From Candidatus Pacearchaeota archaeon (GTDB lineage: Archaea; Nanobdellota; Nanobdellia; Pacearchaeales; GW2011-AR1), in NCBI GenBank assembly GCA_041659945.1, contig JBAZXH010000001.1, positions 363,395 through 387,394 on the forward strand: a stretch of 24,000 nucleotides of DNA. Direction: 5' to 3'. The notes beneath the pieces were generated by a model that saw nothing but the letters and a program-made list of their open reading frames with translations, had not been told where the DNA came from and made no database searches. Below are positions 10,423 to 21,323 of the stretch, in pieces (position 1 is the first letter of the stretch; every line of letters begins with the position of its first letter). Made by a program: the position numbers and the translations under genes.

Positions 10423-11421
10423 ATGAAAAGGAAGATTATTAAGCAAGGGCATAATACACTAACAATAACCCTGCCTTCTGATTGGGTTAAAAAACTTAAT
10501 TTAAACGCTGGAGATGAGGTTGATCTTTTTGAAAATGCGAATTCTTTGGTTATAAGCGGAAAGCAACATAATGGACATAAATCTACAACAATTGATATTA
10601 CTGGATTAAGAGTACCTATGGTTTGGAGATTTTTTCAAGGGGCTTATAGAGAAGGTTATGATGAAATAAAGTTAATATATGATGCAAATAAGCAGGAGTG
10701 TGAAAATGCTTATGATTATTATGCTAATCAGTTTGCCTATACAAGAATGGGTGAAAGGCCAAGAAAGGTTGCTACTCTTGATATGGTTAGTGGTCTTGTT
10801 AGTAGATTTATTGGAATAGCTATTATTGATCATGGCCCAAATTACTGTATTATAAGAGAAATGGGAGAACTGTCAACAAAAGAATTTGATAACTCTTTGA
10901 GAAGAATCTTTTTGTTAATCTTAGAATTATTTGACGAGATTATTTCTATGATTAAGGATAATAAAATTAGTGATATTGGTGTTTGTAAAAGAATTCATAC
11001 TATGGATGTAAATGTTGATAGGTTTGTTGATTACTGTTGTAGAATAAACAATAAGATTAATGACTCAACATTTCAAAAGAATAAACAGCTTATGTTTTCT
11101 ACACTTTTCTTATTGGAGATTTTAAGTGATGAGTTTAAGTATATTGGTAGACATCTTGCAAACTCAAAGAAAAAGGTTGATGAGATTTTAGAGTTTGCAG
11201 AGTTAGTTAAAGAGCATTTTGAGATGTACTATGAGTTATTTTATAAATTTGATAAAGATAGAGCGATTAAATTTGGAGAACATGATTATGAGATTTATAA
11301 TGATCATTTTGAATTAAAAGAATCAGTTAACAAGGATGTTAATAGTATTCGAAGACATTTAATGCAGGTAAGTAAGTTTACTTTTTGTCTAATGGAATTA
11401 AGAGTTGAAATGGAGTACTAG
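10423..11421 (+). CDS. AbrB/SpoVT-domain regulator with PhoU-like helical C-terminal region
   Basis: The N-terminus KIIKQGHNTLTITLPSDWVKKLNLNAGDEVDLFENANSLVISGK is a SpoVT/AbrB swapped-hairpin motif. The long helical remainder resembles archaeal PhoU-type phosphate-uptake regulators. Confidence 0.65.
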   Translation: MKRKIIKQGHNTLTITLPSDWVKKLNLNAGDEVDLFENANSLVISGKQHNGHKSTTIDITGLRVPMVWRFFQGAYREGYDEIKLIYDANKQECENAYDYYANQFAYTRMGERPRKVATLDMVSGLVSRFIGIAIIDHGPNYCIIREMGELSTKEFDNSLRRIFLLILELFDEIISMIKDNKISDIGVCKRIHTMDVNVDRFVDYCCRINNKINDSTFQKNKQLMFSTLFLLEILSDEFKYIGRHLANSKKKVDEILEFAELVKEHFEMYYELFYKFDKDRAIKFGEHDYEIYNDHFELKESVNKDVNSIRRHLMQVSKFTFCLMELRVEMEY

Positions 11422-11440
11422 AGATTCTTGTTTAATAATT

Positions 11441-11456
11441 AAATGCTCCCGCCGGG
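11441..11456. repeat. exact 16-nt copy of tRNA-Glu 3' end plus trailer (AAATGCTCCCGCCGGG)
   Basis: Identical to 11573-11588, which covers the acceptor 3' strand and the first trailer bases of the tRNA-Glu gene. Confidence 0.9.
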
Positions 11457-11528
11457 GGCTAAAAATTGCTTCACAATTTTGGCAACTTTAATTCTAAAAC
11501 TAATGAATCAAAGTATTCTAACCCTCCG
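11453..11528 (-). other. tRNA-Glu-linked structured non-coding element (copy A)
   Basis: On the minus strand, CGGAGGGTTA can pair with TAGCCCCCG (one bulged A). This encloses hairpins CTTTGATTC-N10-GAATTAAAG and AAAATTG-TGAAG-CAATTTT. It contains the conserved 29-nt module at 11458-11486. Folded by hand. Confidence 0.4.
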
Positions 11529-11575
11529 GGTTCGAGAATTCCAAAGGAATTCATATTATCTTTGATATTATAAAA

Positions 11576-11802
11576 TGCTCCCGCCGGGATTCGAACCCGG
11601 GTCTAAGCCGTTCTCCGTATTCTCAAAAACCTAAAAAAGAATTTTTTCAGGTGACAAAATTTCTTTTGCATATGAGAATTTATCTATTTTTTCAAATAAA
11701 TTTCTCAGAGGGCAGTCGATTTGAGAACCGAGTGCCGGACTTTCAACAAGTCTGTGGCTCTGCTCGAGAGGGCCTAATGCTTGACCACTACACTACAGGA
11801 GC
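11576..11802 (-). tRNA. tRNA-Glu (anticodon CUC) with 154-nt intron at 37/38
   Basis: Exons 11802-11765 and 11610-11576 give a 73-nt cloverleaf. Acceptor is GCTCCTG/CGGGAGC, D arm GTGT-AGTGGTCAA-GCAT, anticodon arm AGGCC-CTCTCGC-GGCTT. The variable loop is 4 nt (AGAC) and the T arm is CCGGG-TTCGAAT-CCCGG. CTCT(32-35) pairs with GGAG ahead of a 3-nt AAC bulge (BHB core). Confidence 0.75.
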
Positions 11803-11822
11803 GTACCTATGGTTAGATCTTT

Positions 11823-11831
11823 GTGTATAAA
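11823..11831 (-). promoter_or_regulatory. TATA-like box for tRNA-Glu (minus strand TTTATACAC)
   Basis: It lies 21-29 nt upstream of the tRNA 5' end. The same 9-mer occurs upstream of tRNA-Gln (12429-12437) but closer to that gene. Confidence 0.35.
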
Positions 11832-11850
11832 AAACTTTTCTATAGAAGAT

Positions 11851-12102
11851 TTATTCAGCTAAATAGACAAGGTCATTTGGTCTTACTTTTTCTGCCACTT
11901 TTATTCCCACTTCATCTCCAGCAGTTGCTTCTGGTACTTCTTCACGGTCGATTTGCATGCTTTCCACTTCTTGTGTGAAGTTAGTTGTTGCACCCTTTAT
12001 TGTTATCATATCACCTACTCTGAGGGTATCATTTAATTTTACTGCAGCAACTTCAACTTTGGAGAAATAAGACATGACTTTGCCAACTTCTTTTTCTGCC
12101 AT
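11851..12102 (-). CDS. stand-alone EF-Tu domain 2-like (translation-factor beta-barrel) protein, 83 aa
   Basis: MAEKEVGKVMSYFSKVEVAAVKLNDTLRVGDMITIKG...SMQIDREEVPEATAGDEVGIKVAEKVRPNDLVY fits the GTP_EFTU_D2 pattern (G-D-x-I, S-I/M-Q, A-x-A-G-D). The track ORF extends to 12258 through the structured element, so I start at Met53, preceded by AGGA. Confidence 0.65.
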   Translation of the reverse strand: MAEKEVGKVMSYFSKVEVAAVKLNDTLRVGDMITIKGATTNFTQEVESMQIDREEVPEATAGDEVGIKVAEKVRPNDLVYLAE

Positions 12103-12159
12103 TATAATCCTATGTAACAGATATTTATTAATCTTTTGTATGAAAAGGATAGCCTTGCT

Positions 12160-12246
12160 CGGTGCTAAAAATTCATCCTGAATTTTGGCAACCATTCGTT
12201 CTGACGAACTCAGGTATTTGAACCTTTCAAATCCTGAATAGCCCCG
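12160..12246 (-). other. tRNA-Gln-linked structured non-coding element (copy B), 87-nt cloverleaf-like fold
   Basis: On the minus strand, CGGGGCTA pairs with TAGCACCG (one G-A mismatch). This encloses CAGGATTTGAA-AGG-TTCAAATACCTG, TTCGT-CAGA-ACGAA and AAAATTC-AGGAT-GAATTTT. It contains the conserved module at 12164-12192. Folded by hand. Confidence 0.4.
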
Positions 12247-12251
12247 CCAGG
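12237..12251. repeat. exact 15-nt copy of tRNA-Gln 3' end plus trailer (AATAGCCCCGCCAGG)
   Basis: Identical to 12324-12338 in the tRNA-Gln gene. Confidence 0.9.
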
Positions 12252-12325
12252 TACTCAAGAATAAACTTCTTGGTAAGTTATCTTCTTATGAAGCTAACTA
12301 TTTGAAAAATCCTGGCAAATATAAA

Positions 12326-12416
12326 TAGCCCCGCCAGGATTTGAACCTGGGTCCCAGCCTTTCTCCTAAATTAATTGACCAGAGGGCTAGATCCTTGACC
12401 GCTAGACTACAGGGCT
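12326..12416 (-). tRNA. tRNA-Gln (anticodon CUG) with 18-nt intron at 37/38
   Basis: A1-U72 acceptor AGCCCTG/CGGGGCT, typical of archaeal tRNA-Gln. D arm GTCT-AGCGGTCAA-GGAT, anticodon arm TAGCC-CTCTGGA-GGCTG, T arm CCAGG-TTCAAAT-CCTGG. The intron TCAATTAATTTAGGAGAA is at plus 12361-12378, with a CTCT/GGAG helix and AAA bulge. Confidence 0.8.
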
Positions 12417-12489
12417 ATGGAAATTAAAGTGTATAAACATTTTTAAAGTTGCTTATATTACAATTTTATAGGGTGAATAAAAGAGGATA

Positions 12490-12930
12490 ATGTCATTTTT
12501 ATTAATAATTTTGCTGGTAGCGATTTTTATAATTGGAGCTTTTGTGTTTCTTAGGTTTAAACATATGAAGGGTAGAGCGTTTTTGTTTATTGGAATATTT
12601 ATTATTATAATTTTAATTGTAGGATATTTTGCAGTTATTTATGGAAGAAATCTTGATTTTACAAAGCCTTCTGATCTCGGTACAATAGTCAAACTTTATT
12701 TTGGATGGTTTGCAACTTTATTTCATAACATGAAAGTTATTACTGGGAATGCAATACATATGGACTGGAGGTCGGTGGATGTAAATGCAACAGACAAAGT
12801 TGTTGGTGGTGTGGAGAATAAAATTTCTAATTTAGGTCCTACAGATTCACAAACTACTCAAACTACTAGTTCTGGCAAAACTTTTAGTTCTTCATCGAGT
12901 AAAGTTGAAGTTAAACCGATGAAGGGTTAG
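12490..12930 (+). CDS. small membrane protein with Ser/Thr-rich tail (146 aa)
   Basis: Two N-terminal hydrophobic helices and AGAGG SD. It shares the LY..W...L..N....TG....MDW motif with the next gene. Confidence 0.6.
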   Translation: MSFLLIILLVAIFIIGAFVFLRFKHMKGRAFLFIGIFIIIILIVGYFAVIYGRNLDFTKPSDLGTIVKLYFGWFATLFHNMKVITGNAIHMDWRSVDVNATDKVVGGVENKISNLGPTDSQTTQTTSSGKTFSSSSSKVEVKPMKG

Positions 12931-20522: not shown

Positions 20523-21323
20523 ATGACAATCCAATTACCAAAGTCCTTTGATGTTGTTGGAAATATTGCAATTCTTAAGTTTGATAAAAATGAGAAAAAG
20601 GCTGAGAAGGTTAAGATTGCCAAGGAATTGATGTTTCAATTGCCTGCCATAAAAACTGTTTTGGAAAAAACTGGTAAGTTTAGTGGAAGGCTTAGAACTA
20701 TGAAAACTAACTTTTTGACTGGTGAGAAAACTAAAATTGCAACTTATCGTGAAAATGGGTGTATGTTTAGATTAAATGTTGACACATGTTATTTTTCTCC
20801 AAGATTAAGCAATGAAAGAAATGAAATTGCTAAGCTAGTTAAGCCTGGAGAAAAAGTTTTAGTTTTGTTTGGGGGAGTTGCTCCTTTTTCAATTGTGATT
20901 GCTAAGATGGCAAAGCCAAAAATTGTTTATTCTGTTGAGATTAATCGTGAAGCTTCAAAGTATGCTAGTGAAAATGTTCGTTTAAATAAATTAAATGAAA
21001 AAGTTATTGTTGTTCAGGGAGATGTGAAGAAAGTTATTCCTAGATTAGTTAAAGAGGGTAAGGGGAGACTTAAGTTTGACAGAATTGTGATGGCTAGACC
21101 GCAATTAAAAGAGACTTTTTTGAAATGGGCATTTATGGTTATTAAGAAGGGCGGAATAATTCATTACTATGGGTTTGCAAAAGATCATGAGGAAGTTATT
21201 AAGTCGATTGAAACTGAGGCTAAAAAAGCAAAAAAGAAAATAAAAATATTTCTGATTAAAAAAGCTGGAGATATTGCACCATTTAAGTATAGATGGCGAG
21301 TAGATCTGCGAGTCATGAATTAA
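20523..21323 (+). CDS. trm5: tRNA (guanine37-N1)-methyltransferase Trm5/Taw2 family
   Basis: N-terminal FDVVGNIAILKF, the SAM-binding stretch VLVLFGGVAPFSI and SVEINREA, with Met-10-like overall length and layout. Confidence 0.75.
   Translation: MTIQLPKSFDVVGNIAILKFDKNEKKAEKVKIAKELMFQLPAIKTVLEKTGKFSGRLRTMKTNFLTGEKTKIATYRENGCMFRLNVDTCYFSPRLSNERNEIAKLVKPGEKVLVLFGGVAPFSIVIAKMAKPKIVYSVEINREASKYASENVRLNKLNEKVIVVQGDVKKVIPRLVKEGKGRLKFDRIVMARPQLKETFLKWAFMVIKKGGIIHYYGFAKDHEEVIKSIETEAKKAKKKIKIFLIKKAGDIAPFKYRWRVDLRVMN

Follow-up and report, generated by a model that had tools for sequence, protein, structure and literature searches.

Archaeal tRNA introns have a published length range of 11-129 nucleotides (nt) with medians of 12-25 nt, and only the intron of tRNA-Trp is known to carry a conserved functional RNA (PMC4090602). 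The present work deals with a tRNA-Glu(CUC) gene which is interrupted by an intron of 154 nt and is located at 11576..11802 of a 24,000-nt stretch of DNA from a Candidatus Pacearchaeota archaeon (assembly GCA_041659945.1, contig JBAZXH010000001.1, positions 363,395 to 387,394), in the following referred to as the window. The gene, its intron and its promoter element lie on the minus strand. The evidence set out below makes it likely that the gene is functional and that its intron is an archaeal, protein-spliced intron at the canonical position, with a relaxed bulge-helix-bulge (BHB) motif and a structured core which is conserved within the lineage.

With the canonical BHB introns at position 37/38 of archaeal tRNAs the intron shares the insertion site, the two 3-nt bulges with a helix of four base pairs (bp) between nt 32-35 and the intron 3' end, and the expected removal by protein. 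It differs from them in its length (154 nt, and in relatives as much as 225 nt, compared to 11-129 nt in PMC4090602), in the missing outer helix h' and in the possession of a conserved core composed of several helices. The euryarchaeal tRNA-Trp(CCA) intron with its box C/D guide is likewise a long, conserved and structured RNA which is found in one tRNA species and is missing in some lineages, whereas in the intron described here C/C' boxes, a kink-turn (K-turn) and a box C/D-type complementarity to the exons are absent and a three-way junction with GNNGA and UCUCAA loops is found. The split tRNA-Glu of Nanoarchaeum equitans has the same tRNA identity and the same break point (37/38) and derives from the same DPANN superphylum; here, however, the two halves share one strand and one promoter and are separated by 154 nt, and neither an internal promoter motif nor a GC-rich leader/trailer is present. 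Intron-rich tRNA genes and relaxed BHB motifs are also known from the Thermoproteales, the introns of which were proposed to transpose between genes, but the present core is found in a single tRNA and at a single position only, and no other copies occur in 411 kb of related DNA.

The tRNA-Glu(CUC) gene and its splice site

Including the intron, the gene has a length of 227 nt. Its 5' exon (11765..11802, 38 nt) comprises tRNA positions 1-37 with one extra base in the D-loop and ends with CUCUCG, the intron (11611..11764) is inserted at the canonical position 37/38, and the 3' exon (11576..11610, 35 nt) comprises positions 38-73, with CCA not being encoded. The joined exons form a 73-nt tRNA-Glu(CUC) with a standard cloverleaf of 7-bp acceptor, 4-bp D, 5-bp anticodon and 5-bp T stem, as found by ARAGORN with introns allowed and checked by hand for the stems. 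In this mode the ARAGORN prediction is tRNA-Glu(ctc), c[11576,11802], and the 154-nt intron is placed in the anticodon loop; the gene is missed by ARAGORN in default mode and by the Rfam tRNA model at its gathering score. A first-pass annotation, made from the sequence alone, had already described a real tRNA-Glu(CUC) whose 73-nt exons are split by 154 nt at 37/38, and ARAGORN with introns as well as the orthologues presented below confirm this description. Regarding the exact boundaries, both intron ends are placed 1 nt later by ARAGORN, which results in A38 instead of C38. Since nine of 11 intronless orthologues read CUCUCAC-GG and 41 of 48 intron-bearing genes have C as the third base of the 3' bulge, the boundaries of the first-pass annotation are the better ones.

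At the splice site the 5' strand of the central helix, C32 U33 C34 U35 (11767..11770), pairs with GGAG of the intron (11613..11616). The 3-nt bulges on either side are C36-G37-A (11766..11764) and A-A-C38 (11612..11610). The adjacent tRNA-Gln(CUG) gene (12417..12325, minus strand) has a like arrangement, with an 18-nt intron at 37/38, the pairing CUCU/GGAG and the bulges GGU and AAA, and both introns end with GGAGAA, as had been stated before. The minimum free energy fold of the window prefers the neighbouring register UCUC/GAGA over CUCU/GGAG. A strict hBHBh' motif was not found in the folds: helix h is present in the form of the anticodon stem, beside the 5' bulge at most 1 bp is possible, and then a multi-helix junction follows. 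The earlier remark that a strict outer helix is not evident was therefore correct, and the splice motif is a relaxed form of BHB. Folding of the pre-tRNA gave a z-score of -3.9 against shuffles; together with the occurrence of the same gene and geometry in 47 other loci this means that the pattern is not due to chance. A TATA-like promoter element, TTTATACAC, is located at 11823..11831, about 20 nt upstream of the start of tRNA-Glu. The identical 9-mer precedes tRNA-Gln (12429-12437), and tRNA-Thr has a form with one mismatch, TTTATAAAC.

For the comparison with related genomes, homologues of the 83-amino-acid (aa) protein encoded between tRNA-Gln and tRNA-Glu (12102..11851, minus strand) were searched for in one genome per species, which led to 80 related loci. 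Nearly all of them come from metagenome-assembled genomes of Pacearchaeota, Woesearchaeota or Nanoarchaeota, and the gene order tRNA-Thr(GGU), tRNA-Gln(CUG), small protein, tRNA-Glu(CUC) recurs across them. According to ARAGORN with introns allowed, tRNA-Glu(CUC) contains an intron in 45 loci and none in 11, and in five further loci the intron core is present with the tRNA-Glu gene mistyped by ARAGORN. The comparison of intron lengths, which had been proposed with the first-pass annotation, yielded 32-225 nt with a median of 104 nt when the window and two relatives are included. The intron had been called unusually long; this holds true against the published 11-129 nt (PMC4090602), yet 154 nt is an ordinary length for tRNA-Glu(CUC) in this lineage.

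Splice geometry was examined in 48 intron-bearing genes, i.e., the window and 47 other loci. The anticodon stem has five of five pairs in all 48, and the central helix, formed by nt 32-35 with the four intron bases preceding the last two, has four of four pairs in 45, among them a covarying version in L048 (UUCU with AGAA). As regards the bulges, 40 of the 48 genes have CAa on the 5' side (the window type has CGa) and 32 have aaC on the 3' side. These features correspond to the canonical 37/38 BHB layout, in which the anticodon stem provides one of the flanking helices. The closest relatives were obtained from a metagenome scan with a 17-mer of the intron start: only two of the 117 matches, L105 and L180, were real relatives. 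Their introns have lengths of 147 and 146 nt, respectively; in L003 the contig ends inside the intron.

The failure of standard tRNA finders to detect the gene would be in line with a pseudogene, that is, a tRNA-Glu disrupted by inserted DNA. This is very improbable, as the exons are intact and covary properly with those of the relatives (the T stem is CCGGG/CCCGG in the window versus CCGAG/CUCGG in L105 and L180, and the anticodon stem changes as well), the splice geometry is conserved, the promoter is present and the same interrupted state is found in at least 45 species.

Structured RNA within the intron

When the introns were aligned by a recurrent hairpin whose loop is G-N-N-G-A, a common module became apparent, a core of about 65 nt, which is found in most orthologous introns and consists of the helices P1, P2, P3 and P4. 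The closing helix P1 is commonly GAGAGG/CCUCUC, and ACAAAG/CUUUGU, AAGCAG/CUGCUU and UUAGGAU/AUCCUAA occur as well. P2 reads GAUCU/AGGUC with the variants GGCC/GGCC and GAUAU/AUAUC, P3 is CUC-GNNGA-GAG and P4 is UGCA-UCUCAA-UGCA. In a MAFFT alignment of 28 modules 86% of the cells pair, compared to 33-52% with the partners slid; two-sided changes were found at 11 pairs, and the covariation score of 0.275 is higher than in all 500 shuffles. While the stems covary, the loops are invariant, with G..GA in P3 and UCU.AA in P4.

A covariance model (R1) was built from other genomes only, the window sequence being left out. In 411 kb of related DNA, 34 sequences matched it with 53 bits or more, all of them on the gene strand downstream of the small protein gene. 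Wherever the exons could be fixed independently the match was inside the intron (32 of 32), and no R1 copies outside tRNA-Glu introns were found in the 411 kb. The shortest core-bearing introns (72-80 nt) are composed of the core and 7-10 nt per side, and longer ones carry additional hairpins before or after the core. A second sequence type with the same architecture is present in L012, L019, L023, L055, L058, L059 and L079 and is recognized by R1 weakly, with 11-27 bits. The core is kept in about 37 genomes between which the neighbouring protein is 61-94% identical. Searches for a corresponding Rfam family, made on the whole window at gathering scores, on 11350-12500 at E <= 10 and on 12 related loci at E <= 5, returned only tRNA and noise. 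An exact-pattern scan of viral contigs yielded no copy of the common core form, and full-text literature searching found no published description of this core. Three features go further than the reviews consulted: the length of the intron, its clade-wide persistence in one tRNA and a core without an Rfam entry, the stems of which covary while the loops are invariant.

The introns contain a third recurrent module, AUGRC-hairpin-GCGUUUG, often followed by a hairpin and GAUUCAAAUG (L049, L052, L056, L058, L059, L073, L075, L085). It makes up the whole of the shortest tRNA-Glu introns (32-45 nt), is located 5' of the core in long ones and is absent from the window.

The intron of the window is bipartite in composition, as the first-pass annotation had recognized: the first 61 nt have 54% GC and the last 93 nt 23%, with 62% in the exons. 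The GC-rich part holds a structured core at 11706..11762, which is seen in the folds and matched by R1. P1 is formed by CAGAG/CUCUG (11762..11758 / 11710..11706), P3 is the hairpin GACUU-GUUGA-AAGUC (11752..11738), the loop of which is of the GNNGA type, and P4 is the hairpin GGCA-C-UCGGUU-CUCA-AAUCGA-C-UGCC with the loop UCUCAA (11736..11711). These elements occur in the order of the common core and inside a 37/38 intron. For P2 there is only a 3-bp alternative, GCC/GGC, which competes with the base of P4. The 5' domain of L105 and L180 is nearly identical in sequence to that of the window with the exception of P4, where the stem changes in a compensatory way from UCGGU/AUCGA to GCAGU/ACUGC and the loop is ACUCUU in L105 and UCUCUA in L180.

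R1 matches the window over its full length at 11771..11704 with 20.7 bits, a weak score (E 0.034 in 411 kb; with filters off, E 0.0067 in 81 kb). Because of this score, and because L105 and L180 are not detected at E <= 10 in 81 kb, homology between the core of the window type and the common type is plausible but not proven; it is suggested by the architecture, the position and one modest score.

The hairpin GACUU-GUUGA-AAGUC, a hairpin holding GGUUCUCAAAUC and a repeated CCCUCUGAG had been pointed out earlier, and all three are present in the window. Their interpretation as tRNA-like fragments has to be revised, since the supposed T-arm is the loop of P4 and the supposed second anticodon arm is the 3' strand of P1. 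With both pieces being parts of the conserved core, the proposed insertion of tRNA-derived mobile DNA into the anticodon loop is not supported. A further likeness, the 80% identity of 11694-11713 to the exon/intron junction of tRNA-Gln at 12368-12387, is not shared by L105 and L180 and is probably due to chance plus the constraint on P1.

The AT-rich part of the intron is structured as well. Its 3' domain (11619..11679), evident from the fold and the comparison with L105 and L180, is closed by the helix AUUCUCA/UGAGAAU (11679..11673 / 11625..11619), which has a counterpart in L105 (AUCUCAA/UUGAGAU) and none in L180. Within it, hairpin X (11669..11654) and hairpin Y (11652..11629) are kept in both relatives, Y with several two-sided changes: its strands are CCUGAAAAAA/UUUUUUAGG in the window, CCUCAAGUUC/GAACUUAAGG in L180 and CUUGAACUC/GAGUUUAAG in L105. 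Between the two intron domains an AT-rich hairpin W (AUUUAUUU / AAAUAGAU) is located at 11682..11701, where L105 has a different small hairpin. The window shares the AT-rich three-helix extension with its closest relatives. As the sequence of the AT-rich half differs among the window, L105 and L180 and the helices X and Y are nevertheless kept, this half represents a selected RNA structure and not spacer or promoter DNA; initially it had been described as looking like promoter or intergenic DNA.

This has consequences for the suggestion that the gene represents a transitional state from an intron-containing to a split tRNA, in which an AT-rich promoter drives a separate 3' half. The low GC content of the last 93 nt and the stretch AAATTTATTTG contained in them seemed to point in this direction. 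However, in addition to the two-sided changes by which the AT-rich helices are kept, AAATTTATTTG is not conserved in L105 and L180, and nothing in 11611-11764 matches the promoter element TTTATACAC within one mismatch. All orthologues are contiguous, with introns of 32-225 nt, and a GC-rich leader/trailer complementarity as in Nanoarchaeum is missing: apart from P1 with its 5 bp and the AU-rich helix that closes the 3' domain, no long-range helices exist. The split-tRNA intermediate is accordingly an extremely improbable interpretation.

Several known RNA classes were considered for the intron and rejected. A box C/D guide would require RUGAUGA (C/C' boxes) and CUGA (D/D' boxes) at a distance of about 12 nt. 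RUGAUGA does not occur in the intron; CUGA is present at 11708..11705 and 11650..11647, 58 nt apart, and is absent at the aligned sites of L105 and L180. No snoRNA (small nucleolar RNA) families were found in Rfam at E <= 10 in 11350-12500. The "UGA" of GGUGAU, which could belong to a K-turn or K-loop, lies in the covarying P2 (GGCC/GGCC, GAUAU/AUAUC), and the internal loop between P2 and P3 has no tandem G-A pairs. The pocket-plus-ACA layout of H/ACA RNAs is not present. A group I intron is not indicated by Rfam at E <= 10 either, and both the length of 154 nt and the BHB geometry are at odds with this class. Finally, the common core resembles a Shine-Dalgarno site (GAGGUGAU) with AUG in the P3 loop 9-10 nt later. 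A small open reading frame (ORF) was rejected, as seven of 37 loops contain ACG, AGG or UCG and one-base indels break the frame; translations made by eye range from about 8 to more than 25 codons, and some of them run into the exon.

Neighbouring genes and tRNA 3'-end copies

The window has a GC content of about 31% and encodes the alpha and beta subunits of an archaeal PheRS and a Trm5/TYW2 methyltransferase, the latter being a Trm5-type enzyme (20523-21323). A scan of 20 window ORFs revealed no gene for a splicing endonuclease or for RtcB. Two further contigs, one of 536 kb from GCA_041664525.1 and one of 833 kb from ENA, contain an identical copy of the region 11400-12500. The 83-aa protein resembles EF-Tu domain 2 and also the C-terminal domain of U32 peptidases; the annotations of its homologues name Pacearchaeota and Nanoarchaeia, and its gene is located directly upstream of tRNA-Glu(CUC) throughout the clade. 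The tRNA-Gln gene is mislabelled by ARAGORN, as tRNA-Pyl(cta) with introns allowed and as tRNA-??? with a 4-base anticodon without introns. It is assigned here as tRNA-Gln(CUG) with an 18-nt intron because the BHB geometry gives this reading. In L013 (2147-2256) a tRNA-Gln labelled Thr(agt) by ARAGORN contains an insert of about 30 nt in the D-loop region, apparently a non-canonical intron.

The surroundings of the tRNA genes are rich in copies of tRNA 3' ends. Defining a copy as the last 11 nt of a tRNA with at most one mismatch within 400 nt, we found copies downstream of 33 and upstream of none of 166 tRNA genes from the window and related loci. Direct copies comprise the last 10-22 nt of the tRNA and are located 50-270 nt downstream of the gene (window, L008-L083, L180); tandem arrays were detected in L082, L014, L046, L050 and L070, and between the copies there is usually a hairpin and an inverted or degenerate copy of the T-arm. 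Three tRNA 3'-end remnants are present in the window, including 11444-11456, 12239-12251 and 12150-12162 (all minus strand). The copies have the look of scars, or of miniature elements, of a recombination that targets tRNA 3' ends. As a feature of this region, they may be more unusual than the intron. An interpretation as T-arm BHB introns was discarded, as only three of the 33 pass and the self-complementary 4-mer CCGG/CUGG accounts for the recurring signal.

Inverted T-arm copies occur downstream of both tRNAs in the window (11526-11535 and 12212-12236, minus strand): TCGAACCCGG is the reverse complement of CCGGGTTCGA of tRNA-Glu, and CAGGATTTGAA-A-GGTTCAAATACCTG is a palindrome built from the T-arm of tRNA-Gln. 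Furthermore, a 28-nt hairpin repeat, TTGCCAAAATT-N7-AATTTTTAGC, is found twice (11458-11485 and 12164-12191, minus strand; 0.01 copies are expected by chance), and each copy directly adjoins the remnant of a tRNA 3' end. In L013 the element downstream of tRNA-Gln contains a comparable hairpin (2279-2304), which has the opposite orientation to the tRNA. At 12150-12162 (minus strand) CCGAGCAAGGCTA followed by caaaagattaataaatat matches the 3' end and the downstream flank of the intronless tRNA-Gln of L003 (CCGAGCTAGGCTA). The present tRNA-Gln of the window differs from that of L003 in sequence and has an intron. Judging from these sequences, it seems to have taken the place of an older gene, with the promoter remaining unchanged on one side and the remnant at 12150-12162 being left on the other.

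Such a replacement, together with the frequency of duplicated tRNA 3' ends in the clade and the patchy presence of the intron among the orthologues, would fit the idea that the intron or the whole intron-bearing tRNA gene is a selfish unit that spreads horizontally, the conservation then reflecting recent spread and not function. The divergence of the core is moreover uncorrelated with that of the neighbouring protein (rho -0.03, permutation p 0.62), although this test is based on very short sequences and has little power. On the other hand, the core is restricted to tRNA-Glu(CUC), where neither its position (37/38) nor the synteny varies, compensatory substitutions in the stems need time and selection, and no copy is found in viral contigs by an exact-pattern scan. 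Taken together, we consider a selfish unit improbable.

Processing of the pre-tRNA and role of the core

In the pre-tRNA, the anticodon stem, the 4-bp helix of CUCU with GGAG and the two 3-nt bulges would form the relaxed BHB. As expected from archaeal biology in general, a tRNA splicing endonuclease would cut in the bulges, after G37 and before C38, and an RtcB-type ligase would join the exons and probably circularise the intron. The m1G37 modification (1-methylguanosine at position 37) would be introduced by the Trm5-type enzyme encoded at 20523-21323. Archaeal cleavage takes place after the second base of each bulge, and applied to this gene the rule predicts exactly the loop sequence of the intronless orthologues.

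The core most likely acts in cis. Here it would close the long intron in place of the missing helix h' and thereby keep both splice sites together, and the invariant loops may offer a recognition surface for a processing factor. Some of the observations speak against this view of the gene, its splicing and its core. The intronless orthologues and the short introns without a core indicate that the tRNA can do without it. In the absence of h', cleavage needs an endonuclease which tolerates relaxed motifs; alpha4 endonucleases with an L3 loop are reported to accompany disrupted tRNA genes in DPANN (PMC5829648). The link of the window to the common core is weakened by the low R1 score and by its failure to detect L105 and L180, and the invariance of the loop sequences exceeds what a pure scaffold would need.

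Another idea is that the core is a functional RNA in its own right which is hosted by the intron and acts either after excision, probably as a stable circle, or within the pre-tRNA through binding of a particular protein or RNA; it could, for instance, mimic the anticodon arm of tRNA-Glu. Of the three suggestions made in the first-pass annotation, an intron hosting a small RNA comes nearest to the present results, inasmuch as the GC-rich half is a core that recurs across the clade. The idea is favoured by the invariance of the loops of P3 (G..GA) and P4 (UCU.AA) beside covarying stems, by the repetition of the anticodon-loop sequence CUCUCAA in the P4 loop UCUCAA of the same pre-tRNAs and by the persistence of the core in about 37 genomes with diverged neighbouring proteins. 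Conversely, no target or partner was identified, 11 intronless and several short-intron orthologues lack the core, and the P4 loop is not conserved in the closest relatives of the window (ACUCUU in L105, UCUCUA in L180). Signatures of box C/D, H/ACA or K-turn RNAs are missing too, and no copy of the core exists outside tRNA-Glu introns in the 411 kb. An independently acting RNA is hence a possible but rather doubtful explanation, and a function of the core in cis during processing of the pre-tRNA is preferred. It is with similar reserve that one may speak of an as yet undescribed family of functional RNAs in a tRNA intron, with the window as a divergent member, which could be the second case after the box C/D guide of tRNA-Trp.

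If true, a second and different RNA-carrying tRNA intron would widen the roles ascribed to tRNA introns. Irrespective of the function of its core, the gene is missed by default tRNA finders, and genomes of this large uncultivated lineage will therefore seem to be without tRNA-Glu(CUC). A survey from 2018 described incomplete tRNA sets in DPANN genomes and urged manual searches (PMC5829648). The locus also provides a natural substrate of defined structure, in which a multi-helix junction closes a relaxed BHB, for the study of target recognition by DPANN splicing endonucleases.

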